Assembly (NCBI GenBank): GCA_964521295.1
Contig: CAZFRF010000001.1
Location: forward strand, 463,865-527,864
DNA: 64,000 nucleotides
Reading direction: 5' to 3'
Origin: an uncultured Gammaproteobacteria bacterium
Lineage (GTDB): Bacteria; Patescibacteriota; Microgenomatia; Levybacterales; UBA12049
The notes under the pieces are model-generated. The model had not been told where the DNA came from and searched no databases. It saw nothing but the letters and a program-made list of their open reading frames with translations. Made by a program: the position numbers and the translations under genes. Below are positions 936-28,937 of this stretch, in pieces; the first letter of the stretch is position 1; every line of letters begins with the position of its first letter.

Positions 936-1559
936 TTATAGAGGAACTGCGGTAACGATAAGTCTTTTTTCGTCATAAAATCCCGTACAAGTATAGATTG
1001 TTAATATTTCATCTTTCGTTGGTTTAATTACTTCTATTTCATTTGGATAAACTGTAGTAATTTTATTAACTTTATATCTAAACCACTTTTCTTTTGTAAA
1101 AAGATAAATTACTTCTCCTATCTTTGTGTCTTTTAAGTTATAAAATAAACCTTTCCTTGCATGTGCGAAAATAACAGTATTTGATTTACTTTGGGGATGG
1201 CCACTTCCCAAGCCATAAGATGCACTAGTATCTGAAGTTTCCCAATATCCATTTACAATTTCCGCAGGTACAACTTTTAAGTCAATCTCGCTGTTGGGAA
1301 TTAGAATCCTAACTGGAATATTTTGATTAACTTTTGAATCTAAAAGTTTTGAATTAATAACAATCGGATTATTACCAGCTGGTTTTGCTACCGGGAATTT
1401 CCAAACTAAAACTAGCATTGCCAAAAATATACAAAGAATTCCAATTACTCTATTAATTAATAATTTATTAAGAAAAGTTTTTTTAACCTGTTTCTGCTTA
1501 GGGGAGTTAGAGGATTTGTTTTTTACCTTAGGCATTTTTTTTGAAAAATTTAAATCCAA
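936..1559 (-). CDS. Sortase-family transpeptidase (membrane-anchored)
   Basis: N-terminal TM anchor. Catalytic triad motifs: His in VIFAHAR, Cys in LTIYTCTG (TLxTC), Arg in RLIVTA. Track start is TTG; an ATG at 1535 (MPKVK) is the alternative. Overlaps the upstream surface-protein gene. Confidence 0.75.
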   Translation of the reverse strand: MDLNFSKKMPKVKNKSSNSPKQKQVKKTFLNKLLINRVIGILCIFLAMLVLVWKFPVAKPAGNNPIVINSKLLDSKVNQNIPVRILIPNSEIDLKVVPAEIVNGYWETSDTSASYGLGSGHPQSKSNTVIFAHARKGLFYNLKDTKIGEVIYLFTKEKWFRYKVNKITTVYPNEIEVIKPTKDEILTIYTCTGFYDEKRLIVTAVPL

Positions 1560-1995
1560 CTATACTTAAAACTAGCGCTAAGACTAATTGCCCAAATTGA
1601 ACTATTGGGTTAATGTCTGAGCTCGTAGAAGATAATCCCAAAACAGCTTGAATAGGTGAGCTTGACTTATCATCTGATTTCCCACTACCAGAGTCTCCTC
1701 CGCCCTGTGGTTGATTTGTTGGAGTAGGTGTTAATTTTTCTGTTGGTGTAGGACTAACTTCTGTAACAGGAGTAGGAGTTACGGTAACTGTTGATGTTGG
1801 CGTTGGAGTAACCTGACTAGTAGTTGGCGTTGGAGTACAATCACAATTTTTAATATTTATATTAACTTGTGTTTCAACAACGTTTTCAGCTTTTGAATCA
1901 CCAGTGGTTGTTGCTAAAGAAAATGTTTGGCTTGATATCGATACCAAAATAACAATAGTTGAAACAAAAACAATAGATTGAAAAATTTTATTCAT
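1528..1995 (-). CDS. Thr/Pro-rich cell-surface protein, putative sortase substrate
   Basis: Signal peptide, TPTPT linker, Gly/Ser-rich stalk. C-terminus is INP + hydrophobic helix + KFFKKNA basic tail, a sorting-signal-like architecture. Overlaps the sortase gene start by 8-32 nt. Confidence 0.5.
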   Translation of the reverse strand: MNKIFQSIVFVSTIVILVSISSQTFSLATTTGDSKAENVVETQVNINIKNCDCTPTPTTSQVTPTPTSTVTVTPTPVTEVSPTPTEKLTPTPTNQPQGGGDSGSGKSDDKSSSPIQAVLGLSSTSSDINPIVQFGQLVLALVLSIVGFKFFKKNA

Positions 1996-2183: not shown

Positions 2184-3497
2184 TTAATTACAGACTGAAG
2201 CTGGATAATAATTATTCGCCTTAGATCCAAAAACTTCTTTTGATCCATTTTCTGTCATATTGTTTCCACATATTTTACCTTGAGGTTCTGTCTCTATTTT
2301 TAAACCGCCAGCTTGATTTTGTTTAAATGTATTGTTATATACATTATTATCTAAACCATATACAGTACCACCTACTGTATGCCCCCCAAGCCTTATTCCA
2401 GCTCCCTTATTACCAAATGTAAGATTATATCTAAATGTATTTTTATCTCCTCTTGCGTCTAATCCGCCCGATTCAGGATCCATCTGACCAGTACATGAAT
2501 TATATTCAACAATATTTTCACTTGATCCCTCTTTTATATCAACGCATTCATTTCCTTGAGTATTAATAGTATTGTGGTGAATATAATTTTTAGTTGATTT
2601 ATCTGGCCCACTTGTAGGATTCTTACCATCGTCCCATTGATCAGCAGCAGTACCTAAATAAATTGCCTCTCCATTTTTATTGTCACTTTTAAACTTGAAG
2701 TCAAAAGCTCCACAGGGACCAATTGTATTATAAGAAATTTCATTACCTAATGCGTAATATCTCAGTCTAACACATTCTCCGCCAGCATTCTTAATCAACA
2801 TCTTTGTTATTTTTAAATTACTGACACCGCTATATTCCTTTTTACCTAAAACATATATAAGCTTATCTCTATAGCTTTTCTCATCTTTTGGATCGCCTAT
2901 CAAACCATCTACAGTAAATCCTTCGAGATTAATATTGCTATGATTTATTTCGATTACACGTTGGGTCCCTGCACCTTTTACTATTGCCTGCCTTCCCCCT
3001 CTTAAGGTTATTGGCGCATCTTTTAAACCATCCCTAACTGAAATAACATCTTGAAAATATACTCCATCTAAAAGGTTTACAACATCAGAAGGATTTGCCA
3101 GTATTAATGCTCTCTGAATTGTTTTTAGCGGAAGATCTTTACTTAAACCATTGTTTTCATCATTTCCTTTATTTGGATCGACAAAATAATTTATACCAAC
3201 TTTTTGCTGATTTTTTCCTTCACTATTTAAATCCTGAGCTGGAGATAACGATTCTTCATTCCCAACAACCTTTTCCTCATTTTGATTTTTTGATGCATTA
3301 TTTTTACTAAGTAATGAAAAAACAATTGAAATTGAAAGTATAAAAATAATTACTAAGGAAAATATTTTTATCATTGGCATTTGCATAGGACTAACTATTA
3401 TTTTTTTCTTTTTTGCATTTTTTACAACTTTAGACCTAGATTTTTTTCTACGCATTTTTATTATTAGAGTATAAACTGGGATTACAAGAAGTGTCAA
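2184..3497 (-). CDS. Membrane-anchored secreted right-handed beta-helix (PbH1/pectin-lyase-fold) protein
   Basis: Basic N-terminus plus TM. Repeated N-x-I/V-x-N-N beta-helix rungs (NNVYNNTFKQNQAGGLKIE, GNKGAGIRLGG). Confidence 0.5.
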   Translation of the reverse strand: MTLLVIPVYTLIIKMRRKKSRSKVVKNAKKKKIIVSPMQMPMIKIFSLVIIFILSISIVFSLLSKNNASKNQNEEKVVGNEESLSPAQDLNSEGKNQQKVGINYFVDPNKGNDENNGLSKDLPLKTIQRALILANPSDVVNLLDGVYFQDVISVRDGLKDAPITLRGGRQAIVKGAGTQRVIEINHSNINLEGFTVDGLIGDPKDEKSYRDKLIYVLGKKEYSGVSNLKITKMLIKNAGGECVRLRYYALGNEISYNTIGPCGAFDFKFKSDNKNGEAIYLGTAADQWDDGKNPTSGPDKSTKNYIHHNTINTQGNECVDIKEGSSENIVEYNSCTGQMDPESGGLDARGDKNTFRYNLTFGNKGAGIRLGGHTVGGTVYGLDNNVYNNTFKQNQAGGLKIETEPQGKICGNNMTENGSKEVFGSKANNYYPASVCN

Positions 3498-3510
3498 CAG
3501 AAAATATATT

Positions 3511-4422
3511 TTATAATATATTTTTTACTTCGTAGGAGAACTCATTCAAACCAAGTCTTTTAACAAATACATCGTTTACATCGATTGCAGTTTTAAGAAG
3601 TGCTGCGTCAAAACCTTTTTCTGTTGCCCAATTATAAAATGCTCTAGTATCTTTTGGAAGACAACTTCCTTGGAAAGGACCCATATCTCTAATTCCATAT
3701 TTTGGATTCCACATTCCTTCACAACTGATTGCTGTATATTTGAATATTTTATCTGCATCAACATCAATCTTTCCTGCAATCTCTCTCATTTCATTGTAGA
3801 AACTAATTTTTACTGCATTAAATAAATTATGAACATATTTTTGCATTTCTGCTTCCATTAACTTACATCTGTTAATTGGACATTTAAACTTATCTTTATA
3901 AACAGCTTCTAAAATATCTCCTGATTTTTTATCATACTCCCCAATTAAAATTATCCACGCATTTAAAGTGTCATCGTATGAAGTTTCTTCTCTTAAATAT
4001 TCTGGATTCATACATGCACCAAAATCTACTCCAACTTTTTTACCAGAATATTTTTCTATTAATGGAATTACTAAATTTTCTGTAGTTCCTGGGGGAACAG
4101 TGCTTTTTACTACAACCAAATGATATTTATTTGTTTTTGCTAATCTTTTTCCTAAATCGGTTGCTGCTGACTCCATTGCTTCAAGATTAATTTTTCCCAT
4201 TTTTGTAGGAGTTGGAACCGTAAGCATGGAGATATCAAAATCATAATCTCCATCCATTAGCTCCCCTCTTTCATATGCGTCAAATCCTTCTTCTCTTAGT
4301 TTCTCTATTTTTTTAATATTTCCACCTAAGAATGCAACCTTATACCCCTTAGCTGCGAAAACTTTTCCGGTTGCTTGACCGACTACTCCTGGACCAATAA
4401 TACAAATTTTAGGATTATTCAT
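3511..4422 (-). CDS. UDP-glucose/GDP-mannose dehydrogenase-family protein, short form lacking the C-terminal nucleotide-sugar-binding domain
   Basis: N-terminal Rossmann motif IIGPGVVGQATG. Catalytic Cys motif GSCLPKDT aligns with GGSCFPKD of the full-length ugd at 37497-38789. Length is 303 aa versus 430 aa. Confidence 0.6.
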   Translation of the reverse strand: MNNPKICIIGPGVVGQATGKVFAAKGYKVAFLGGNIKKIEKLREEGFDAYERGELMDGDYDFDISMLTVPTPTKMGKINLEAMESAATDLGKRLAKTNKYHLVVVKSTVPPGTTENLVIPLIEKYSGKKVGVDFGACMNPEYLREETSYDDTLNAWIILIGEYDKKSGDILEAVYKDKFKCPINRCKLMEAEMQKYVHNLFNAVKISFYNEMREIAGKIDVDADKIFKYTAISCEGMWNPKYGIRDMGPFQGSCLPKDTRAFYNWATEKGFDAALLKTAIDVNDVFVKRLGLNEFSYEVKNIL

Positions 4423-4545: not shown

Positions 4546-7449
4546 TTAATTTACTTGATCTATCATTCCCATTACATCTTTTCTATTTCTATATAATTCA
4601 TTAGTGCCTAAAATATTACTTACATCTGTGGTTACTTTTGTATAAATTCCATAAATCTTACTTTGTTTTATTTGATTTTGAGCAAGCTTATTATTTAAAG
4701 CATTTTCTTGGAAATATATTCCAACTCCATTATTAAATAAAATATTTTTACTAATTTCGTTTAAATCAGATTTTATATAAACACCAACTTTATTTCCTTC
4801 AAATGAGTTATTGGCAATTAAATTACTATTTGCTTTATCATAAAAATATATACCATATAATTGACTACCGTTAATATCATTATCTTTAATAAGATTCTTA
4901 TTCGAGCTAACATTTGCCCTAACACCATGTCTATTATTTTGAATTGTATTATTGGAAACTATATTATTACTTGACCTCCAAAGAGCGACTCCGCTAACAT
5001 TACCCCTTATAACATTATTTTCTATGACATTATAATCAGATGTCTCATGGAGCATTATTCCATGTAATTTATTGTTATAAGAAATATTATCTCTAATGGT
5101 GTTGTACATACATCTTTTTGAAAAAATAATTCCATGCGTTCCATTATCATGAGCTATATTTTTTTCTACTATAAAACCGTTAGAATCATCATGTGGATCT
5201 AGTCCATATCTTGTGTTCTCGTAAAACTCATTGCCTCTCCAGATCATTCCAGTTGCTCCGTAGGTAAATGCACCGAAATAATTATGGTGGAATTTACTAT
5301 TAACAACTTCTCCAGTTAAAAGATGATTCTTAAGTTTTAAACTCGATAATTTCCACGATATTCCATATGGGGAAACCGCAATATCAGATGCTGTTGGATA
5401 TCCAAGATAAGAAATTTCTGAATCAAATAAATCCATTCTTGCATTATCCTTTACCATAATAAAACTTCTGCCATCTTTTAGTTCTTTATCGTAATCGTTT
5501 TTCGAACTATCCCATGAAGTAATTTTTACACCATTAATAATTATGTCGCCATTTCTACTTCTAAGCATTGCAAAGCCGTCTTTATTACTTTCAAGCTTTA
5601 ACCATTTAACTTCACTTTTATCTAACTTAAGAGTTACACCATCTGCTAGGAAAATTGTTGCTTTAGAAAGATATGTATAGGGCTCAAGTTCTAAAATATA
5701 GTCTTTTCCTGCACGTGAAATAATATCTTTTAGGGTAACAACCTTTCCTCTTCCTGTTACTAAAAGTGTATTTGTTTTACTATCATATGTAACAGCAATT
5801 CCTCCATCATCCCTAAACGGCCTAACTAAACTAAATTCGGAAATTAACTCAAGATCTTTTCCGGGAATAGAAATAATCTGCCCTTTCGTAATTTGTCTAT
5901 TTGGTGCCTTTGCCATATTTGCATAATAGAGTTGCTCACTGTTAACACCAAACTTGTTCGCTATTTGATCCAAAGATTCATCATTTAATACTTCATATCT
6001 TTTTGACAAAAGATCTTTCTGTACTGAACCCGTTCCCAATACGCTTACTGAAGCAATTTTTTTTGTATCATTAGGCAAAGCTTGGGACAATATTTGCATT
6101 TTTTGTTGATTTGGTAGTAAATATGTATATTGTTTATATAAATAAACACCATATGCTAAAAACAAAACTATAGTAAAAGTTGCTAGATATGGAGGAAGTG
6201 AATTAATAAATTTCATATGTGGAAGCCTCGATTTATCCCATCTTGTAATCCAGCCCTGTGTATTTAAAGTGAAAAATGCATATATCTTTACCAAACCAGT
6301 AAAGAAGGAATATAAAACATAACCAGGTAGGATATAAATATTTTTTGGATTCTTTGATAAATAAGGATGAATCTTAATCGCCCTACTTACAAACCACCAG
6401 CAAAAGATTATTGCTGCAGCAACATAAGATCCAAGATAAATCGAAACAAAGAAATATATTGGACTTAAAATGACTACAAATGATTGCAAGAATTTATCAA
6501 TTTGAAAAAACAGTAATGCAGGATGTTTCAATGGCCAACCATTTAATATGGCTCCAAGATCAGCTCTTAACCCATTTCTTGTCCATCTGAGTCTTTGCTT
6601 AAGATATGCTCTTAAACTCTCCATCCCAGGAGTATAAACATGAGAATTACTTTGAAAAGCAACCTTATAACCTGCTGCTAAAACTAAATATGTTAACCTC
6701 TTATCATCACCTGAGATAACTGGTCTACCTAAAAACTTTTCGTTTACTAAATCGTCAAGCATTGGTGTTATTATTTCTCTTTTATAAAATGCGGTTCTTC
6801 CCGAAAGACAGACTAATGCATCTCCACATGCTGCTAAGAATGGGTACTCATGCTTGTACCTTAAATCAAGTTGGATATCAAATATTTTCTGTGCAAATGT
6901 TTTAGGATTTAATACGTTTTGATATGTTGCTACTCCTCCCATTTTTTTATCGTTAAAGGGCGGAAGTCCATTTTCTAAAGTATCTTTTACCCAAATAGTA
7001 TCACTATCTACTAAAGCAACAATCTCACTCTTTGCAACTTTTATTCCATCTACTAAAGCCTGCCTTTTCCCTGGAACTTTAGTAATAATTAATTTTGCAC
7101 CAGGAAAAGTTTTCTTAAACTTCTCGAAAATCTTAATACAAATTTTATCTGTATAATCAATTACTGCAATTATTTCATCTGGCTTATTTCTTTTCCAAGA
7201 TTCTAGAGCTTGTGTAAATACTTTTGGATTTTCATTATATACTGGAGTAATTATAGAAACTTTTGCTTTATAAGATTTTGTTTTGGGATGATAATGAAGC
7301 CCAACTATTTCTTTCATCATCCAAATAGACCATCGCCAAATACCGATTATTCCAAGCGGTACTAAGAATGAATATCTGTCTAAATATTGTTGCGAATAAA
7401 ATGATAAATCTCCAATGAATAATTGAAAGTTCAAAATAAACGATTCCAT
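4546..7449 (-). CDS. Processive GT2 polysaccharide synthase (NodC/chitin/hyaluronan-synthase-like) fused to a LysM motif and a C-terminal PbH1 beta-helix domain
   Basis: GT2 motifs DSDT, SGDDKRLT (GEDRxLT-like), QRLRWTRN (QxxRW), followed by multiple TM helices. LysM-like segment: YEVLNDESLDQIANKFGVNSEQLYYANM...ITKGQIISIPG. C-terminal repeats NNVIRGN / NNTIQNN / IKDNDINGS are typical of parallel beta-helix. Confidence 0.7.
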   Translation of the reverse strand: MESFILNFQLFIGDLSFYSQQYLDRYSFLVPLGIIGIWRWSIWMMKEIVGLHYHPKTKSYKAKVSIITPVYNENPKVFTQALESWKRNKPDEIIAVIDYTDKICIKIFEKFKKTFPGAKLIITKVPGKRQALVDGIKVAKSEIVALVDSDTIWVKDTLENGLPPFNDKKMGGVATYQNVLNPKTFAQKIFDIQLDLRYKHEYPFLAACGDALVCLSGRTAFYKREIITPMLDDLVNEKFLGRPVISGDDKRLTYLVLAAGYKVAFQSNSHVYTPGMESLRAYLKQRLRWTRNGLRADLGAILNGWPLKHPALLFFQIDKFLQSFVVILSPIYFFVSIYLGSYVAAAIIFCWWFVSRAIKIHPYLSKNPKNIYILPGYVLYSFFTGLVKIYAFFTLNTQGWITRWDKSRLPHMKFINSLPPYLATFTIVLFLAYGVYLYKQYTYLLPNQQKMQILSQALPNDTKKIASVSVLGTGSVQKDLLSKRYEVLNDESLDQIANKFGVNSEQLYYANMAKAPNRQITKGQIISIPGKDLELISEFSLVRPFRDDGGIAVTYDSKTNTLLVTGRGKVVTLKDIISRAGKDYILELEPYTYLSKATIFLADGVTLKLDKSEVKWLKLESNKDGFAMLRSRNGDIIINGVKITSWDSSKNDYDKELKDGRSFIMVKDNARMDLFDSEISYLGYPTASDIAVSPYGISWKLSSLKLKNHLLTGEVVNSKFHHNYFGAFTYGATGMIWRGNEFYENTRYGLDPHDDSNGFIVEKNIAHDNGTHGIIFSKRCMYNTIRDNISYNNKLHGIMLHETSDYNVIENNVIRGNVSGVALWRSSNNIVSNNTIQNNRHGVRANVSSNKNLIKDNDINGSQLYGIYFYDKANSNLIANNSFEGNKVGVYIKSDLNEISKNILFNNGVGIYFQENALNNKLAQNQIKQSKIYGIYTKVTTDVSNILGTNELYRNRKDVMGMIDQVN

Positions 7450-7451
7450 AA

Positions 7452-8327
7452 TTAATTTTTCTTTCCTTTCTTAATTTTTTTCATGACACTATTTTTTACT
7501 TCAGTATTTTTATTCTTATTTATAAATTTTCCTATAAATGAAAAATTTATATATTTATTTTTATAAATAATGATAAATGCCATAAATAAAATGACATTTA
7601 ATTGAGGAAAATATTCACACCAAAAATTATCATTTGGACATGAACCGTTTATCCTTTTAAAAATTATGAATATCATTAAGGGTATTAATACTGAATAAAT
7701 TTTTTTCAATTTAACATATCTATTAGAAAAATAAAAAAAACTAATCAATAAAAGTAATTCGATTCCAAGCATTTTTAAACCAACGCAACTTGTGCAACTT
7801 AATGATTGACCTTCAATTGTTGTTAATGGCGCTGGCGGGGGCGCTTTATCATCATCACTATTATTTATTTCTCCTGAGTCTGTTGCGCCCTCAACAGCTT
7901 TATATATCGATAAGTTTGGCTGCCTTGAAGTTGTAATACCATTTGGATATCCAGCAATAGCTGAAAGTTTATTGGAAAATTTTCCAGGCTTACAACCGTT
8001 TTCTCCACGTACTTTAAAATAATACTTAACTCCATTTGTTAATTCATTAACAGTATAAGTAGTGGTACCTTTTGGTCCAACGTTTGGATTTCCAAACTCA
8101 ACATCTAATTCATTTCTAGAATACGCAACCAAATAATGCGTTACAGGATCCGATGCTTCTTGCCATGTCAAAACTACACTTCTATCTTTTGCTTCTGCAG
8201 ACAAAAGAACAGGTGGTGTAAATGGTCTTTCATTTTTACAACTAACCGCATATCCTTTATTTATAGATGAAGACCCCAATAAAAAACAAAAAAGTAGTAT
8301 AACTACTACAAATATTTTTCCCGCCAT
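7452..8327 (-). CDS. Membrane protein with fibronectin type III-like domain
   Basis: Signal peptide. FN3-like block (LTWQEASDPVTHYLVAY...YYFKVRGENGC). Pro-rich linker. C-terminal hydrophobic helices with a Lys-rich tail. Confidence 0.4.
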   Translation of the reverse strand: MAGKIFVVVILLFCFLLGSSSINKGYAVSCKNERPFTPPVLLSAEAKDRSVVLTWQEASDPVTHYLVAYSRNELDVEFGNPNVGPKGTTTYTVNELTNGVKYYFKVRGENGCKPGKFSNKLSAIAGYPNGITTSRQPNLSIYKAVEGATDSGEINNSDDDKAPPPAPLTTIEGQSLSCTSCVGLKMLGIELLLLISFFYFSNRYVKLKKIYSVLIPLMIFIIFKRINGSCPNDNFWCEYFPQLNVILFMAFIIIYKNKYINFSFIGKFINKNKNTEVKNSVMKKIKKGKKN

Positions 8328-8819
8328 ATTTTTAATATGGCAAATTGTAACATAAAAATTTAAAAAAGTCTTGAGTTAATTTTACTAATATTTCCATTTT
8401 CCCAACGATCGAGAAATTTTGAATATATTTCTAAACAAAATAAATATAAATATTACTATTTAAAAAAATTGTCTTACTAATCTCTTACTCATAAATATGT
8501 GTTTTAAAATAAATAAATTTTATATTTAATACATGAAATATTTAGTTGCTTGGATACTAGGAGTCCCAGTTGGGGTGTTGGTTATTATTTGGATTATCAC
8601 GCAAATAATATAATTTATGAAAATTACATTATTTAACAAAAAATCTTCTCAGAAAATATATTTAGATGAAAATCAAAAAAAATTAATTCTTTTTACAAGA
8701 TTTCAAATTAAAAAATTACAAGAAAAAGGCCTTAAAATTCCCATTACCTTCTTATAATCTTTACACAATTATTACATTTTCTTCATATTGTTTTTCAAAA
8801 TAAGAGTTATAAATAAATT

Positions 8820-9204: not shown

Positions 9205-9882
9205 ATGAATAAAACAATATTAGTAATCGAAGATCAAAAAGATTTACAGAATTATCTAAAAGAGTTCTTACTTGATAATGATTTTCTTGTCTTAACTGCA
9301 AACGATGGCATCACAGGATTAAATCTTCTAAAAAGAACGCTTCCAGACTTAGTTCTTCTAGATCTGGGACTTCCTAATATGGATGGGGAAAGCGTTTGCC
9401 GTGAAATCAAAAAGAATTGGCCGGGACTTAAGATTATTATTCTCACAGCTAAAAATGATACCCTCGACATAGTTCATGGTCTTAATCTAGGTGCTGATGA
9501 TTATATTACTAAACCTTTTCAGCTAGAAGAATTAATTGCAAGAATAAAAGCAAGACTTAGGCATGATACTAAAAACACTCCCACTAAAAGCCTAGAGGAT
9601 CTTGAGCTAAATGAAGAAACCCACGAGGTAAAAAGAAATGGAATAAACATAGACCTTACAGCAACTGAATTTAAACTTCTCGATTATTTAATGTCAAATC
9701 CAGGCAAAGTTTTAACCAGAGAAATGATTTTAAGTAAAATTTGGTCCATGGCACCAGATATTGAATCTAGATCGGTTGATGTATATATTGGCTATTTAAG
9801 AAGAAAAATAGACAGTAATTCTCCAAAAAAACTAATTCAATCAGTAAGAGGATTTGGCTACACAATTAAATCATCTAACTAA
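9205..9882 (+). CDS. Two-component response regulator, OmpR/PhoB family
   Basis: Receiver domain (DQKDL...LLDLGLPNMDG...K). C-terminal winged-helix trans_reg_C (LTATEFKLLDYLMSNPGKVLTREMI...VDVYIGYLRRKI). Confidence 0.85.
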   Translation: MNKTILVIEDQKDLQNYLKEFLLDNDFLVLTANDGITGLNLLKRTLPDLVLLDLGLPNMDGESVCREIKKNWPGLKIIILTAKNDTLDIVHGLNLGADDYITKPFQLEELIARIKARLRHDTKNTPTKSLEDLELNEETHEVKRNGINIDLTATEFKLLDYLMSNPGKVLTREMILSKIWSMAPDIESRSVDVYIGYLRRKIDSNSPKKLIQSVRGFGYTIKSSN

Positions 9883-10144
9883 TCGTCAATAGTTTCGATG
9901 TCTTTGCTTTAGATTTTTCCGTAAAATATGTTGTTGCATTTGGATTATTACTAAGTTTATGAGTGTAATCAAACTTAGAAGAATATTTTCTCTTCTTTAA
10001 TTTTACTGTATGTTTTACCTCTAGGGGCGATGACCAAATAATGTAAAAAGAGTTTACTAATGGAATGTTATTTATTATGTTTTTCATATTTTTATAATAG
10101 TGAAAAAATATTGTAAGTTGAGGAAAGTGGAGTAAGAAAAAAGT

Positions 10145-10191
10145 AAAAAAAAAGAGGCTTGTTCAAAGCGCTAAACAAACCTCATTTTTTT
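10145..10191. terminator. Bidirectional rho-independent terminator
   Basis: A8-GAGGCTTGTT-loop-AACAAACCTC-T7 hairpin flanked by A- and T-runs, between the convergent response-regulator gene and the 10198-10470 gene. Confidence 0.45.
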
Positions 10192-10197
10192 AGGGAT

Positions 10198-10470
10198 TTA
10201 TTTTTTATTACTTTTACTTGATTTATTTTTTATTACTTTTTTTAATTTATCTTTTCCCTCTTCCAAATTCACATCGTCTTTGTGGGAGTTTATATATTCA
10301 ACAGCCTGATCCTTAGCTGCTGTTACAACTTCCTTAACCTTTTTCTTGGCATTTTCATTTTTAAGAGCTTGAGCTGCTGCAATTGCTACACCTGCTCCAA
10401 CTACTGCTCCAGTTACGGCACTCGCTATTGGATTTATTGAATTGTCCTTCTTCTTATCATTACTAAACAT
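10198..10470 (-). CDS. Small Lys-rich protein with one hydrophobic segment (stress-protein-like)
   Basis: 90 aa. AVTGAVVGAGVAIAAAQAL helix flanked by K/E-rich tails. Confidence 0.4.
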   Translation of the reverse strand: MFSNDKKKDNSINPIASAVTGAVVGAGVAIAAAQALKNENAKKKVKEVVTAAKDQAVEYINSHKDDVNLEEGKDKLKKVIKNKSSKSNKK

Positions 10471-10482
10471 AATCTCACCTCC

Positions 10483-10695
10483 TTATTTTTTAGAATCTAT
10501 ATTAACGTTTATATCTTTAGGAACATTAATCTCTGGTGATGTGGAATAAGAGTTAAAAAAACTTGCTAACATTGGGAATAAATATACTACTAATATAACC
10601 ACTACCACCAATAACAAAATAATTCCTAAAATCATTCCCATTCCATTTCCTGATGAATCATTGTTTGCTGGAGGATTTACGATTGTCGTTGCCAT
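10483..10695 (-). CDS. Small membrane protein
   Basis: 70 aa, single strong TM (ILGIILLLVVVVILVVYLF). Confidence 0.35.
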   Translation of the reverse strand: MATTIVNPPANNDSSGNGMGMILGIILLLVVVVILVVYLFPMLASFFNSYSTSPEINVPKDINVNIDSKK

Positions 10696-10696
10696 T

Positions 10697-10939
10697 TTAT
10701 TTATGCACCATCCTTCCTATGGTAATTAAAATTACTGCTCCAATAATCGCTACTACGAAACTATAAATATTAAAACCCGTCACTCCTGATTCACCAAGAA
10801 GGTTCATAATAAAACCACCCACAAATGCACCAAGAATTCCTAAAATGATATCCTCAAGTAAACCATGATTACCCTTAGTTAATAAATCTGCAATCCAACC
10901 CACTATTGCTCCGAACACTATCCATACAATGATATTCAT
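10697..10939 (-). CDS. GlsB/YeaQ/YmgE-family transglycosylase-associated membrane protein
   Basis: 80 aa. Pattern IVWIVFGAIVGWIADLL...GILGAFVGGF is typical of this family. Confidence 0.7.
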   Translation of the reverse strand: MNIIVWIVFGAIVGWIADLLTKGNHGLLEDIILGILGAFVGGFIMNLLGESGVTGFNIYSFVVAIIGAVILITIGRMVHK

Positions 10940-11026
10940 AAGCTCATCTTAATAAAGGATGTAAAAAATCAAAGAAGACTAATGTAAGAAATAAGTAAGA
11001 AAGATCATTTATGGATTATTTTTTGT

Positions 11027-11032
11027 TATAAT
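11027..11032 (+). promoter_or_regulatory. Extended -10 element (TGTTATAAT) about 10 nt upstream of the kinase ATG; near-leaderless transcript likely
   Basis: TGtTATAAT at 11024-11032, ATG at 11043, no Shine-Dalgarno. Confidence 0.35.
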
Positions 11033-11042
11033 TTAGGCTCAA

Positions 11043-12227
11043 ATGGAAACAATTGATGTAAAAATTAAAAATGAAAATATAATGGATTTAGTTTATAAAT
11101 CCGCTATCAAATTTCTTACTCCGCTCAATCTGGAGGAAACATATAAAGTATTTATAAATGAAGCATTAAAGATTTCCAAAGCTCAACATGGATCAATTAT
11201 CCTGATAAAAAATGGACACTTTACTAGAGCTTATTCTACAAGTACTCTTTTAAATCAAATTAAACCTCGAACGAGAGGCTACACATATAATGCATATAAA
11301 ACGAAAACAATTAAAATCTTAACAAAAACTCAACTTGCTAAAATTCATCCCGAAATATTAGAGCAACAAATTGAATACGATATTATTATTCCCCTAGTTA
11401 ACGATAATAGATCAATTGGAGTTTTTACAATTCTTTCTAAACATAAGCTCTCTAAAGATCAAATAAGAGCTCTAAAGCTATTTAGTCCCTTGGGAACTCT
11501 AGCAATTAGAAAAGCTCAATTATATTTGGATGTTCAAAAAACTATCGAAGCAAGAGACCTCTTTGTATCAATTGCTTCCCATGAACTACGAACTCCTCTA
11601 ACCACTTCCTACATATATCTTCAGCTAATTGAAAGAAATTATGCAAAAAATAAACCTTTTGATATTAAGTGGGTAACGACTTTAAAAGATGAAACTGAGA
11701 GGCTTTCTTCAATAATTAACGAGTTATTAGAAATAAATCAGATTAACATGGGAAAATTCTCATATAATTTAGAGGTTTGCAATATTGATGACGTCATTAA
11801 TAGAGTAATTAGTAACTTTAAAATTAAATATAAAAATAGATTTACAGCTATTAATAAGATTCCTTCTGAAAACAAATTAATAATTTGTGACTCTAATAAG
11901 CTAATCTCCGTATTTATTAATTTATTAGATAATGCTATTAAACATTCTGATGAAACTTCAAAGGTAACAGTTTTACTTGAATCAGATCGAAAAAAATATA
12001 TTACCATTTCAATACAGGATAAGGGAGAAGGAATTCCTAGAGAAGATTTAAAAAAAATATTTGATGATTTTTATAAAGCCAAAAATAATACAAAACCAGG
12101 AATGGGTTTAGGTCTTTTTATTGCTAAAAGAATTATTGATAAACACAGGGGCAAAATCTTAGTAACATCCCAGCTTAACAAAGGTACCAATGTTAGTGTA
12201 CAATTACCATTCATTAAAGATGCTTGA
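11043..12227 (+). CDS. Cytoplasmic sensor histidine kinase (GAF-like N-terminus, HisKA, HATPase_c)
   Basis: H-box SIASHELRTPLT, N-box NLLDNAIKHS, G-boxes DKGEGIP and GMGLGLFIAKRII. No TM segments. Confidence 0.85.
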   Translation: METIDVKIKNENIMDLVYKSAIKFLTPLNLEETYKVFINEALKISKAQHGSIILIKNGHFTRAYSTSTLLNQIKPRTRGYTYNAYKTKTIKILTKTQLAKIHPEILEQQIEYDIIIPLVNDNRSIGVFTILSKHKLSKDQIRALKLFSPLGTLAIRKAQLYLDVQKTIEARDLFVSIASHELRTPLTTSYIYLQLIERNYAKNKPFDIKWVTTLKDETERLSSIINELLEINQINMGKFSYNLEVCNIDDVINRVISNFKIKYKNRFTAINKIPSENKLIICDSNKLISVFINLLDNAIKHSDETSKVTVLLESDRKKYITISIQDKGEGIPREDLKKIFDDFYKAKNNTKPGMGLGLFIAKRIIDKHRGKILVTSQLNKGTNVSVQLPFIKDA

Positions 12228-13248
12228 GCAACAACCAACATCCAGGATAAGGCAAATTGTACCACCAGTAGATCAAGGCGCAGCAATTCTAAATAATGCG
12301 CTCTTAATAGATGGTCAAAAAGCAGCACCGGCTATTTTGGAAAAAGTCGCAGATTTCCCAATCAGAAGAATAGTTGTGTTTGGTGAACCAGGCGCAAACA
12401 AAACAACCATTTTACTACAACTTGCGACTGCTATAACCCAGCAAGATCCAAGTATTAAACCTCAGTATTTATTTTATGATTCTGTGCTTGCTAGATACAG
12501 ACAGGAAACAGGTACCACAGAGATGAAACCAAAAGATCATCACGCTGTGTCAAATAGGCTAACGCATGAGATGGAATCAACTTTTAGACCAAAATCTAAA
12601 CTCGATGGCAAAAGACCCATTCAATTCCTAGAATTAGTAGGAATGAGCAGGCAAGACAGAGGAGTGTCTACTTTAAGAAAAGCAGCGGCAAGAACCACGA
12701 ACATATCTCCTATCGAAAGAGATACGTTAGCGATTGGAATAGTGGCAGATCCGCGATCACTTAGAGACGCTGGCGAAGTTAGACAACAAGTAAGAGATTT
12801 AGTAAATCCTCAAGACGTATACAGAGTTTTAAGAGATTATAGAATTTTTATCTCTCGCTTCAACCAAGGAGCTTCTTATGAGCAAATGGCTGAACGAATT
12901 GTTGAATTTTTCAGAAACATGGCTCCTCCTCACAAAATTGAAGAGGTACATAGAGAAGTTATGAGTCAAGCAAGACAAAGCTCAGAAGAAGATGAATATA
13001 GACTTTTTAAACAACTAAAGCTTCCCCAACTAGATTTTCCCATATCTGATGCTGCTATAAAAACAGATTATCTTCTCAGTCTTTCATATATGCAAACACA
13101 TATGGCAGATTTAGGTTTAGTTGCTGATCCTCTCTCACCTACTCCAGATTACTTAAGAGATTCTGGACTAACAATATTCAGTCCCTATAATCCAAATATC
13201 CCAAAGGTTTTAGACCTAGCTCAAGTATTAGAGGCAACAAAACATTAA
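12220..13248 (+). CDS. Hypothetical protein with degenerate P-loop (GEPGANKTT), translationally coupled to the histidine kinase
   Basis: ATGCTTGA start/stop overlap with the kinase. Arg/Gln/Asp-rich and higher GC (~40%) than its neighbours. RecA/KaiC-like Walker-A-like segment RRIVVFGEPGANKTTILLQLA. Confidence 0.5.
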   Translation: MLEQQPTSRIRQIVPPVDQGAAILNNALLIDGQKAAPAILEKVADFPIRRIVVFGEPGANKTTILLQLATAITQQDPSIKPQYLFYDSVLARYRQETGTTEMKPKDHHAVSNRLTHEMESTFRPKSKLDGKRPIQFLELVGMSRQDRGVSTLRKAAARTTNISPIERDTLAIGIVADPRSLRDAGEVRQQVRDLVNPQDVYRVLRDYRIFISRFNQGASYEQMAERIVEFFRNMAPPHKIEEVHREVMSQARQSSEEDEYRLFKQLKLPQLDFPISDAAIKTDYLLSLSYMQTHMADLGLVADPLSPTPDYLRDSGLTIFSPYNPNIPKVLDLAQVLEATKH

Positions 13249-13307
13249 TTACTCAATTCTTACGCATTTATTTAAACATTTATAAATTTTATCTTTATAT
13301 TAATAGT

Positions 13308-13478
13308 ATGCCAAAAGGTAAACACCTAAAAGGAGTAAGTACAAAAGAACAACGAAAATATGAACATATCAAAGAATCAGCTGAAAAGAGTGGAAGATAT
13401 GGAAAAAGAGCGGCTGAAGTTGCTGCTCGAACTGTAATGAAACAACACGGTGAAAAACATCATCTCAAAGGTAAATAA
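13308..13478 (+). CDS. Small basic protein (56 aa), possible ChaB-like; not in ORF track
   Basis: ATG at 13308, stop at 13476-13478. MPKGKHLKGVSTKEQRKYEHIKESAEKSGRYGKRAAEVAARTVMKQHGEKHHLKGK. Confidence 0.35.
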   Translation: MPKGKHLKGVSTKEQRKYEHIKESAEKSGRYGKRAAEVAARTVMKQHGEKHHLKGK

Positions 13479-13489
13479 CAGTATTAAAT

Positions 13490-13942
13490 CTAAATACTTC
13501 CAAATAATTTAACCCCAAAATAAAGCGAAAATATTATCGAAAAAATAAGGCAACATTGCCAAAAAAGCTGATAAATAAACCAAATTGAATCCCCTTGAAA
13601 AATTTTATGAAACTTAAGAGTATGAGGCGGATTACGATTTTTCCCTGCAAACTGCTCGTTAATCCAATAAATGATTTCACCAAAACTCCTTACTAACCAA
13701 AACAATGAAACTATAAGTAAAAATAGATTAAAATTATTTAATATTAAAGACATTAAAGATACTATTAGCCAAAATGGGCCCAAAATAAACATATCTCCCC
13801 ACACGAAACCTCCTAGGAAAAATAAAAATGGAGTTAATCCATAAACATTCTTTCGGTTTTTTATCTGCAATAACGAAGTAAGAAAAAATATTAATCCCAA
13901 AAATCCAATTGTTAAGATTATAATTTGCTGAAAATTATTCAT
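13490..13942 (-). CDS. Small integral membrane protein
   Basis: 4 TM helices. Start reassigned to ATG at 13942 (MNNFQQ) because the TTG-initiated track ORF runs into the tRNA. Confidence 0.45.
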   Translation of the reverse strand: MNNFQQIIILTIGFLGLIFFLTSLLQIKNRKNVYGLTPFLFFLGGFVWGDMFILGPFWLIVSLMSLILNNFNLFLLIVSLFWLVRSFGEIIYWINEQFAGKNRNPPHTLKFHKIFQGDSIWFIYQLFWQCCLIFSIIFSLYFGVKLFGSI

Positions 13943-13961
13943 AAAGTATGATTGAGGTGTG

Positions 13962-14032
13962 CTGCCGAGCAGGGATTCGGACCCCAATAAACGGATCCAG
14001 AATCCGTTGTCCTACCATTAGACGACTCGGCA
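13962..14032 (-). tRNA. tRNA-Gln (anticodon CUG)
   Basis: Manual cloverleaf on the minus strand: acceptor TGCCGAG/CTCGGCA with U1:A72 and G73; D-arm GTCT-AATGGTA-GGAC; anticodon stem ACGGA/TCCGT with loop TTCTGGA; T-arm TGGGG-TCCGAAT-CCCTG. No encoded CCA. Confidence 0.6.
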
Positions 14033-27764: not shown

Positions 27765-28937
27765 TTATTTTACGTCCAAAACGCCATCGGTCGGAAGAAC
27801 CGTAAACCAGATTAAGCCTCTGTTAAATTTCATCTCTTTTCCGCTTGCGTCGGTAATAATTGTTCTATCTATTCTAGATTTTTTCGACCAAGTTGCTTTT
27901 ACCTCTTCTCCATCTTGAAGCACAACGGCCTTACCTGTTCCTTTGTTTTTATATAAAAGATGAACATTGTTTTCATAACCGTCATTTGCGTGTGACTCTA
28001 CCATATACATGACTACAATGGTTTTGGCGGTAATTTGTTTTTTCGTATTCACATCAATATGTGGAGCTCCACCATTGTTTCTTGCATACAGATTAGTTTT
28101 AGGATCATATTTCCAATCTACGTCATAATCTTTGTCTCCCCAGAACTCTATATGCGCCACTTGACTTGCACCCCTATCAGCAACAGGAGCATCATCTTTA
28201 AATGAATATTGCACAAATGTTGTATCCCAAGCTTTACCATCTTCATCTACATTAGTTAACTTTCTATTTTTTGCTGCATAATCCCACAAGCTTTGTGTTT
28301 TAGAATACATTGTATGCTCCGAAGCAACATCTCGACCTTGTCTTGCATCAATCTTTTTATATATTGGAAATGGAACACTAAACTGGCTTAAATCGTTATA
28401 TAAATGCCAACCATATTGATCTAACTGACCCAATGCATCAGCAGGACCAGGCTGAGCCGCGCCTCCTACGTGAGCATATAATGGATAATTGCCATACTCA
28501 GAAATAAAATCAATAAAGTATGTTCTAGCAGATCTAATTGGCCCAATATATTCTCCGCCATCCTGGCAATAATAAACAGCTAAAAATCTAGTTATTCCAC
28601 CCTCAGCAACGATCTCATAAACGACGTCTGCCTTAGAAAGACCCGATTGCGGTCTCGACTGTTCATGGTTTTCTGTCATCACGCCCAATGGCCTATGTTT
28701 TTGCCACCAAGCTTCTTGTTGCTTTGAGTACATTGCTCCATTTAGAGGACACTCTTGAGTTTTGGGTAAAGTTTCATCAAATGCAACACTACCGCTAGAA
28801 GTGACCTTAGGGGCGCTTACAGGCGTTGCTACTACACCAGTTAAACCTTGGGAAAAGATAAAAAAAGAAATACCTGTAGATAAAAAGTATAAAGCTAACG
28901 CAGAAAGTAAAATTATTAATTTATTGTTATTTTTCAT
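27765..28937 (-). CDS. DUF3048-family secreted/membrane-anchored protein (YerB-like)
   Basis: N-terminal anchor. RPLGVMTENHEQSRPQSGLSKADVVYEIVAEGGITRFLAVY closely resembles the DUF3048 core. Confidence 0.6.
   Translation of the reverse strand: MKNNNKLIILLSALALYFLSTGISFFIFSQGLTGVVATPVSAPKVTSSGSVAFDETLPKTQECPLNGAMYSKQQEAWWQKHRPLGVMTENHEQSRPQSGLSKADVVYEIVAEGGITRFLAVYYCQDGGEYIGPIRSARTYFIDFISEYGNYPLYAHVGGAAQPGPADALGQLDQYGWHLYNDLSQFSVPFPIYKKIDARQGRDVASEHTMYSKTQSLWDYAAKNRKLTNVDEDGKAWDTTFVQYSFKDDAPVADRGASQVAHIEFWGDKDYDVDWKYDPKTNLYARNNGGAPHIDVNTKKQITAKTIVVMYMVESHANDGYENNVHLLYKNKGTGKAVVLQDGEEVKATWSKKSRIDRTIITDASGKEMKFNRGLIWFTVLPTDGVLDVK

Follow-up and report, generated by a model that had tools for sequence, protein, structure and literature searches.

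A soluble GAF histidine kinase and a putative nucleotide-binding P-loop partner encoded as a conserved gene pair in Patescibacteria-type bacteria

Accessory partners of histidine kinases and the kinase-X locus

Bacteria of the Patescibacteria, or Candidate Phyla Radiation (CPR), have tiny genomes and few regulators, and to our knowledge almost nothing has been established experimentally about state sensing in them. Here we describe a locus in a 64,000-nucleotide stretch of DNA from contig CAZFRF010000001.1 (positions 463,865 to 527,864; hereafter the window), in which the gene for a soluble sensor histidine kinase overlaps the gene for a predicted P-loop protein that we call X. The pair invites comparison with known proteins that adjust histidine kinases. 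Among these, PII shifts the activity of NtrB according to bound ATP or ADP and 2-oxoglutarate. Kinase accessory proteins such as PII/GlnB (with NtrB), Sda, KipI, PtsN and UspC are small and cytoplasmic, bind the dimerisation and histidine phosphotransfer (DHp) and catalytic (CA) domains, and shift kinase or phosphatase activity (PMC12189002). Their folds are unrelated to that of X, and no P-loop protein with a constant genetic link to its kinase is among them.

The best functional analogy for the role we propose for X is offered by RapZ, which acts in E. coli with QseE/QseF (GlrK/GlrR) as a cytoplasmic, P-loop kinase-like accessory sensor. RapZ, a P-loop-domain protein, binds both components of this system and, unless loaded with glucosamine-6-phosphate (GlcN6P), stimulates the autophosphorylation of QseE (PMC7073468). 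The two systems differ in several respects. The RapZ gene does not lie beside qseE, whereas the gene for X adjoins its kinase gene and usually overlaps it; QseE is a membrane kinase, whereas the partner of X is soluble; and X, unlike RapZ, has no separate phosphofructokinase (PFK)-like RNA-binding C-terminal domain. X also gave no above-threshold Pfam or NCBIfam match to a RapZ-type family, and no such family was found among the best 25 of 37 Pfam families matching X-family members. In the output of the cyanobacterial clock, KaiC is likewise an ATP-binding P-loop protein that controls a histidine kinase (SasA or CikA). Finally, actinobacterial conservons (CvnA-D) combine a histidine-kinase-like sensor and a Ras-like P-loop GTPase in one signalling unit (PMC13343842, PMC13621833). 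However, conservons have four core genes, including those for Roadblock/MglB, DUF742 and a membrane kinase, whereas the X locus has no Roadblock gene, and X, which has no G-motifs, does not belong to the Ras-like GTPases.

We consider it moderately probable that the kinase and X form an ancient co-inherited module in which X acts as a nucleotide-binding accessory subunit of a two-component system. If so, the few nucleotide-binding accessory factors known for such systems would be joined by X, whose family neither Pfam nor NCBIfam contains. The pairing of a soluble GAF kinase with an unannotated partner of P-loop kinase fold in every context recovered points to a core module for signalling in these organisms.

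Conservation of the gene pair

By its domain content, the upstream gene encodes a class I (HisKA) sensor histidine kinase with all catalytic boxes predicted to be intact. Pfam matches were found to GAF_2 (E = 3.5e-6), HisKA (E = 4e-12) and HATPase_c (E = 1.5e-27), the latter two above the cut-offs. The phospho-acceptor histidine, H180, lies within SHELRTPL. The residues H180, N293/N297, D326xGxG, F340 and G353xGxG, which represent the H, N, G1, F and G2 boxes, do not vary among 8 orthologues. No hydrophobic or transmembrane (TM) segment was found in the kinase (KD19 maximum 1.16), which is therefore predicted to be cytoplasmic and soluble. The gene is under purifying selection, with a ratio of nonsynonymous to synonymous substitution rates (dN/dS) of 0.02-0.05. 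These results bear out the original prediction, made from the sequence of the window alone, of a cytoplasmic GAF histidine kinase whose stop codon overlaps the start of the next gene.

The kinase gene ends in AAAGATGCTTGA, and its 8-nt overlap with the gene for X, ATGCTTGA, has a geometry expected of translational coupling. Among the related loci that we compared (numbered with the prefix L), overlaps of 4 nt (ATGA) or 8 nt recur in L001, L002, L004-L010, L012 and L017. The exceptions are L003, with a 23-nt overlap as called, and L011, with a 5-nt gap. X is itself under purifying selection (dN/dS 0.07-0.11), and because of this selection and the recurring stop/start overlap in homologous loci we regard it as a real gene and not a chance open reading frame (ORF). 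Gene callers use an alternative in-frame ATG at 12190, which would make X 352 aa long, but every homologue begins at the equivalent of 12220. The ORF had been correctly recognised in the original prediction, although its length of 343 aa counted the stop codon; the protein has 342 residues. In L005 the kinase is broken into two ORFs (2530-2805 and 2751-3710) by a frameshift or an assembly error, with X and the rest of the locus intact.

X had seven close relatives among 5.8 billion clustered proteins (identities of 100, 89, 70, 48, 45, 43 and 43%), none with a name or a Pfam domain, and a profile search of the same set found no relatives beyond P0055. A HMMER search of 1.84 billion representatives returned 55 X-family proteins at E ≤ 1e-3. 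All are about 270-390 aa long, so the family shows no fusions to other domains. Candidatus Blackburnbacteria, of the Patescibacteria/Microgenomates group, is the source of one relative. Together with the low GC and a contig of 936 kb, this relative makes it probable that the window itself belongs to a small genome of the Patescibacteria/CPR. Scanning genomes with a 10-sequence alignment gave 2 related loci, and scanning metagenomes gave one, whose kinase and X ORF scores were identical to those of L008. A viral scan for related loci found none.

Genomic context was available for 13 distinct homologues with readable upstream DNA, out of about 55 representative clusters. In all 13, down to 19-22% identity, X lies directly 3' of a same-strand GAF-HisKA-HATPase_c kinase of 384-394 aa, and synteny around the pair is kept down to 43% identity. 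The partner is orthologous according to a kinase hidden Markov model (HMM) in 12 of the 13 and was assigned by Pfam architecture only in L017. Each complete partner kinase scanned scored 550-640 bits with this HMM, compared with 57 bits for a paralogous GAF kinase located 2 kb away in L007, and the partners therefore represent one orthologous kinase lineage co-inherited with X. It had been proposed that X is an accessory partner of the kinase, and that finding its orthologues at loci without kinases would speak against this; the pairing agrees with the proposal, and none of the 13 contexts was kinase-free. Judged by these comparisons, the genes for the kinase and X appear to be an ancient pair that has been passed on vertically in Patescibacteria (CPR)-type bacteria.

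The gene pair has additional neighbours in the Blackburnbacteria-type clade (L007 1645-5727; L008 22-4157). There, the gene for an S-adenosylmethionine (SAM)-dependent methyltransferase abuts or overlaps the kinase start, giving a methyltransferase-kinase-X operon, and X is followed by a gene of ~255 aa, of which the L008 copy has a sub-threshold His_Phos_1 match (E = 5.6e-4). L007 also carries a single-domain receiver (1218-1601, minus strand), and its second, paralogous GAF kinase (5825-6994) has no X partner.

Origin, fold and possible activities of X

The original prediction had suggested that X could be horizontally acquired, and it was right that the GC content and amino-acid usage of the gene depart from the local norm. 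GC is 38.6% across 12220-13248, compared with 32.1% for the window. The 352-aa version has a GC of 38.2% and ranks first among 64 window ORFs (z 1.9), in a near-tie with 27765-28937 (38.1%). Arg (8.0%) and Gln (6.5%) both rank second of 64, while Lys (4.8%) ranks 59th. Tetranucleotide distance is mildly raised (z 2.2, top 5% of windows), as expected from the unusual amino-acid composition.

Synonymous codon usage and GC at third codon positions (GC3), in contrast, indicate a native gene. GC3 is 0.247 (rank 13/64, z 0.9), leave-one-out synonymous-codon likelihood has a z of -1.47 (rank 4/60 from the bottom), and AGA makes up 75% of Arg codons in X versus 68% in the remaining window. In nine of nine lineages, GC of X minus that of the kinase was +0.06 to +0.19 at codon position 1, +0.04 to +0.14 at position 2, and -0.02 to +0.05 at position 3, and X was Arg-rich and Lys-poor in all nine. 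Since the excess is confined to positions 1 and 2 across these lineages, it is a trait of the protein family rather than a sign of recent transfer. More generally, high GC of a gene in an AT-rich genome does not indicate horizontal transfer if the excess sits in codon positions 1 and 2. Relatives of X were not found among 72,556 plasmids, 50,697 phage records or a viral contig set. Recent horizontal acquisition and attachment to the kinase of an ATPase that is RecA/KaiC-like and has a decayed P-loop would accommodate the top GC rank, the tetranucleotide signal and the non-canonical Walker A motif. We nevertheless consider it very improbable in view of the native codon usage, the shared offset at positions 1 and 2, the conserved kinase-X synteny, and the fold and P-loop conservation described below.

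X scored above threshold with no Pfam, NCBIfam, PHROGs or PADLOC model, and by these searches its family, absent from Pfam and NCBIfam, appears to be undescribed. The only matches were weak and local to the P-loop, among them DO-GTPase2 (E = 0.002) and AAA_25 for X, and nSTAND3, AAA_16, AAA_18, KTI12 and Zeta_toxin for members of its family. Sequence-profile matches to the PDB were also restricted to the P-loop. We rejected X as an anti-phage defence gene, as the sole PADLOC match, mad8 (E = 0.0029), lay over the P-loop.

AlphaFold2, supplied with a 56-sequence alignment, modelled X as a confident single body, with a predicted local distance difference test (pLDDT) score of 92.6 and a predicted template modelling (pTM) score of 0.91. 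Foldseek searches of the PDB with this model gave no match at E ≤ 1e-3 and template modelling (TM) scores of at most 0.31; the structures returned were only nucleotide, nucleoside and polynucleotide kinases, all weak, and BFVD yielded the same classes equally weakly. The modelled core is a three-layer alpha/beta arrangement that superposes on known P-loop kinases. By secondary-structure order its strands are beta1 (50-54), beta2 (79-85), beta3 (132-139), beta4 (169-176) and a C-terminal strand (316-321). The model suggests a five-stranded core in which a helical segment of ~120 residues (178-300), between beta4 and the last strand, occupies the position of the kinase LID. X is thus modelled as a compact P-loop protein of the kinase class, with the fold of polynucleotide, PSTK/Kti12, adenylate and adenosine 5'-phosphosulfate (APS) kinases. 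It differs from this class in sharing only 9-19% sequence identity with it, in being about twice the size of minimal P-loop kinases, and in belonging to a clade with a G60N variant of the P-loop. No RecA-type core was recognised, although the Walker A motif had been called RecA/KaiC-like from the sequence.

To assess the residues of X, we counted alignment columns over 56 family sequences and took structural positions from the secondary structure of the model. The predicted motif GEPGANKTT is present at residues 55-63, but it does not appear degenerate: K61 and T/S62 are each found in 56/56 sequences, G55 in 55/56 and P57 in 50/56. Position 60 is G in 36, N in 16, H in 2 and S in 2 of the 56, so that the canonical Gly is the majority and Asn60, from its recurrence, appears to be a stable subfamily variant rather than decay. 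X also has an acidic residue after beta2 (D/E87, 55/56) and candidate LID arginines (R147, 52/56; R188, 56/56). D177 is found in 40/56 sequences, and the adjoining helix spans residues 178-192, with R as the family consensus at position 183 (Table 1). In Clostridium thermocellum Pnk (CthPnk), the corresponding roles are played by Lys21/Ser22, Asp38 as general base, and Arg120/Arg123, and the general-base/acceptor-binding role falls to Asp38 in CthPnk and to Asp35 in T4 Pnk (PMC3902929). We equate residues of X with Asp38 and Arg120/123 of CthPnk by topology, not by superposition. On this basis, X appears to retain the full set of nucleotide-binding and phosphotransfer-type residues, in the pattern of a working P-loop phosphotransferase.

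These residues raise the question of whether X is an enzyme. That X is an active phosphotransferase of a new P-loop kinase family, hard-wired to the His-Asp phosphorelay and either making or consuming the GAF ligand or O-phosphorylating the kinase or regulator, is possible though unlikely in our estimate. Were it so, a reduced Patescibacteria-type cell would integrate ATP/nucleotide status or a metabolite with two-component signalling through a bicistronic kinase-kinase module, with small membrane and general-stress proteins as the regulon under its control.

More specifically, X could phosphorylate a small molecule or nucleotide, and the GAF domain could bind the substrate or product of this reaction, which would link the two proteins through metabolism without a stable complex. 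The kinase fold, the acidic residue at position 87, the conserved arginines and the intact Lys and Thr/Ser of X do resemble an active phosphotransferase; GAF, a small-molecule binder, is the sole sensory domain of the kinase; and the methyltransferase and weakly His_Phos_1-like genes of the Blackburnbacteria-type operon would suit a small pathway. Even so, we find this version distinctly unlikely. Strict overlap and 1:1 pairing, kept over very deep divergence, characterise subunits more than an enzyme and its sensor, other pathway genes are not conserved around the pair, and similarity to any specific small-molecule kinase never extended beyond the generic core, as the low Foldseek scores illustrate.

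Two further activities were weighed. As a P-loop protein kinase or phosphotransferase resembling HprK/P or BY-kinases, X would O-phosphorylate the kinase, the regulator or an output protein and so add a second phosphorylation layer. P-loop protein kinases exist, HprK/P being an example (PMC12189002), and X combines conserved catalytic-type residues with tight linkage to the kinase. However, X resembles BY-kinase and HprK no more closely than it does dozens of other P-loop kinases, and neither a BY-kinase Walker A' motif nor a tyrosine cluster was seen in X, although no formal search was made for them; we judge this activity improbable. Action on nucleic acid, as a polynucleotide 5'-OH kinase or a PSTK/Kti12-like tRNA kinase or ATPase that is merely co-transcribed, is a shade more improbable still. 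The X family is not basic overall (median isoelectric point 6.15, median net charge -3), RNA-repair partners (phosphatase, ligase, Hen1) are not consistently adjacent, and the invariable pairing with one kinase lineage would be left unexplained.

The reading that we favour is of X as an accessory subunit. The overlap would allow coupled synthesis of the kinase and X, and the two proteins would function in a complex. X may bind ATP or GTP, and probably also a second ligand in the acceptor site, and could signal its state to the kinase through an effect on autophosphorylation or phosphatase activity, which would make this a three-component system. Output would run through the nearby OmpR-type regulator, which probably binds GTAAGA-N5-GTAAGA repeats and may thereby autoregulate kinase-X and control neighbouring small membrane and general-stress genes.

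Several observations weigh against a dedicated subunit working in this way. In the closest comparison (L002), in which dS was similar for all three genes, X had a dN of 0.060, the kinase 0.010 and the regulator 0.013. A tight obligate subunit would not usually have a dN 4-6 times as high as its kinase, as X does, although the catalytic-type residues of X stay invariant. The G60N substitution could weaken catalysis in this clade. Operon membership alone fits a purely metabolic or unrelated role of X as well. Furthermore, the distant loci L011 and L012 have no response regulator within 5 kb, so that the link between kinase and regulator holds only for the close clade. The system is testable with recombinant proteins, without cultivating the organism, on the basis of the model, the candidate residues K61, D87, E138, R147, R188 and N60, and the putative operator.

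Table 1. Features of the kinase-X locus, in window coordinates; residue counts are out of 56 family sequences.
Feature	Position	Strand	Remarks
Protein X gene	12220-13248	+	342 aa, Arg/Gln-rich, Lys-poor; predicted P-loop kinase-fold family member
Soluble sensor histidine kinase gene	11043-12227	+	394 aa; GAF input, HisKA (dimerisation/phospho-acceptor), HATPase_c (catalytic)
Stop/start overlap ATGCTTGA	12220-12227	+	8 nt; X ATG at 12220, kinase TGA at 12225-12227
Walker A/P-loop GEPGANKTT, residues 55-63	12382-12408	+	G60N variant; column counts over 56 sequences in text
Y86-D87, C-terminal end of beta2	12475-12480	+	Y/F 52/56, D/E 55/56; general-base/acceptor-binding Asp position, by topology only
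Walker-B-like E138 (hhhhE, end of beta3) and D146-R147-G148	12631-12660	+	E138 54/56 plus 2 Asp; R147 52/56; D146 43/56
Arg-rich helix after beta4 (R179, R182, R188)	12754-12783	+	Candidate LID arginines; R188 56/56; R179 R/K 36/56
Direct repeat GTAAGA-N5-GTAAGA, candidate operator	10984-11000	+	11-bp period; invariant in 5 loci, spacer otherwise diverged
Extended -10 element TGTTATAAT of kinase-X operon	11024-11032	+	TGnTATAAT columns invariant in 5 loci
Second exact GTAAGA-N5-GTAAGA site	8472-8488	-	Between fn3-protein gene and small-ORF/YggT/regulator operon
Third repeat site, 1 mismatch	10132-10148	+	45 bp upstream of minus-strand ORF 9875-10087; position kept in L001, L002, L005, L006
OmpR/PhoB-type response regulator	9205-9882	+	225 aa; Response_reg 1.6e-28 (99.5 bits), Trans_reg_C 6.8e-26 (90.6 bits)
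Three small membrane/stress genes, operon divergent from kinase-X	10198-10939	-	Conserved in L001, L002, L005, L006
Transgly_assoc (GlsB/YeaQ/YmgE family)	10697-10939	-	E 7e-15
Single-TM 70-aa protein	10483-10695	-	Operon member
Lys-rich 90-aa protein	10198-10470	-	Operon member
56-aa Lys/Glu/His-rich protein downstream of X	13308-13478	+	Close clade

Regulator, candidate operator and neighbouring genes

The regulator upstream of the kinase combines a receiver with a winged-helix Trans_reg_C domain, as in the OmpR/PhoB family. Its best NCBIfam similarities were to PhoB and MtrA, both below the equivalog cut-offs. It is syntenic in L001, L002 and L005 and is probably the cognate partner of the kinase. 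As the original prediction had noted, the regulator and the kinase are split by three opposite-strand stress-protein genes. This arrangement is conserved in the close clade (the window, L001, L002, L005 and L006), where the order YggT, regulator, small minus-strand genes, kinase-X is kept.

OmpR/PhoB-type regulators bind direct repeats of one-turn spacing. Aligning the 100-120-bp divergent spacer between the Transgly_assoc and kinase genes revealed such a repeat at 10984-11000, with a wider form of TGTAAGA-N4-GTAAGAAA. It lies 26 nt upstream of the extended -10 element of kinase-X and 45 bp from the Transgly_assoc start codon. A promoter consensus scan of the window gave no excess over chance, so the call of the kinase-X promoter rests on the phylogenetic footprint.

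With at most 1 mismatch, the repeat has 3 matches in the 64-kb window compared with 0.37 expected, a count reached in 1 of 100 shuffles. All three are intergenic, all fall within the kinase/regulator locus, and copies of the repeat, including equivalents of the degenerate copy described below, stand at orthologous positions in four related loci (L001 2499, 3910, 4782 and 7022; L005 487, 1629, 2496 and 4730; L002 2273, 3934 and 4795; L006 62 and 905). Each copy has the start codon of an opposite-strand small gene about 45 bp away. The site at 8472-8488, which also precedes the start of the fn3 gene by about 145 bp, occurs at orthologous positions in L001 (2499), L005 (487) and L002 (2273, 1 mismatch). 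The site at 10132-10148 is less certain because it partly overlaps the T-run of a terminator. A degenerate copy with 3 mismatches at 13245-13264 (minus strand) precedes the 56-aa gene, and its equivalent in L001 and L005 precedes a KGG gene. Because one-turn direct repeats are targets of OmpR/PhoB-type proteins, we infer that the regulator binds these sites; from the footprint, GTAAGA-N5-GTAAGA is likely the operator of the OmpR-type regulator, defining a small stress regulon.

Window genes are short and closely packed, and the neighbourhood of kinase-X is consistently rich in small stress-type proteins. In L001 (7114-7383) and L005 (4818-5108), a KGG-repeat general-stress gene takes the place of the 56-aa gene downstream of X and is followed by a DUF6496 protein. 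On the other side of the kinase, a strong terminator-like hairpin lies at 10183-10154 (minus strand), next to the small-gene operon. A possible fourth small gene (9875-10087, minus strand; 70 aa) has an 8-nt overlap with the 3' end of the regulator gene. It lies beyond the hairpin and would therefore need its own promoter. Conservation of its protein is weak in L001 (E = 2e-6) and L005 (E = 5e-4) and strong in L002.

Upstream of the YggT and regulator genes, a tiny hydrophobic ORF of 26 aa (8534-8614, plus strand; MKYLVAWILGVPVGVLVIIWIITQII), a candidate small membrane protein, is found 46 bp downstream of the 8472-8488 site, and a 46-aa gene was called at the corresponding place in L002 (2419-2559). 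Two minus-strand genes lie upstream of the locus at 4546-8327, one for a membrane protein of 291 aa with an fn3 domain and the other for a protein of 967 aa, whose L002 orthologue has glycosyltransferase family 2 and beta-helix/NosD domains. These domains point to a cell-surface polysaccharide function beside the stress regulon. An Rfam scan of the window returned nothing but one tRNA. A tRNA-Gln (CTG) gene at 13961-14032 (minus strand) overlaps the 5' part of the listed ORF 13490-13987, and the membrane-protein gene within this ORF probably starts at the ATG at 13942; in L002 it was called with a length of 150 aa.

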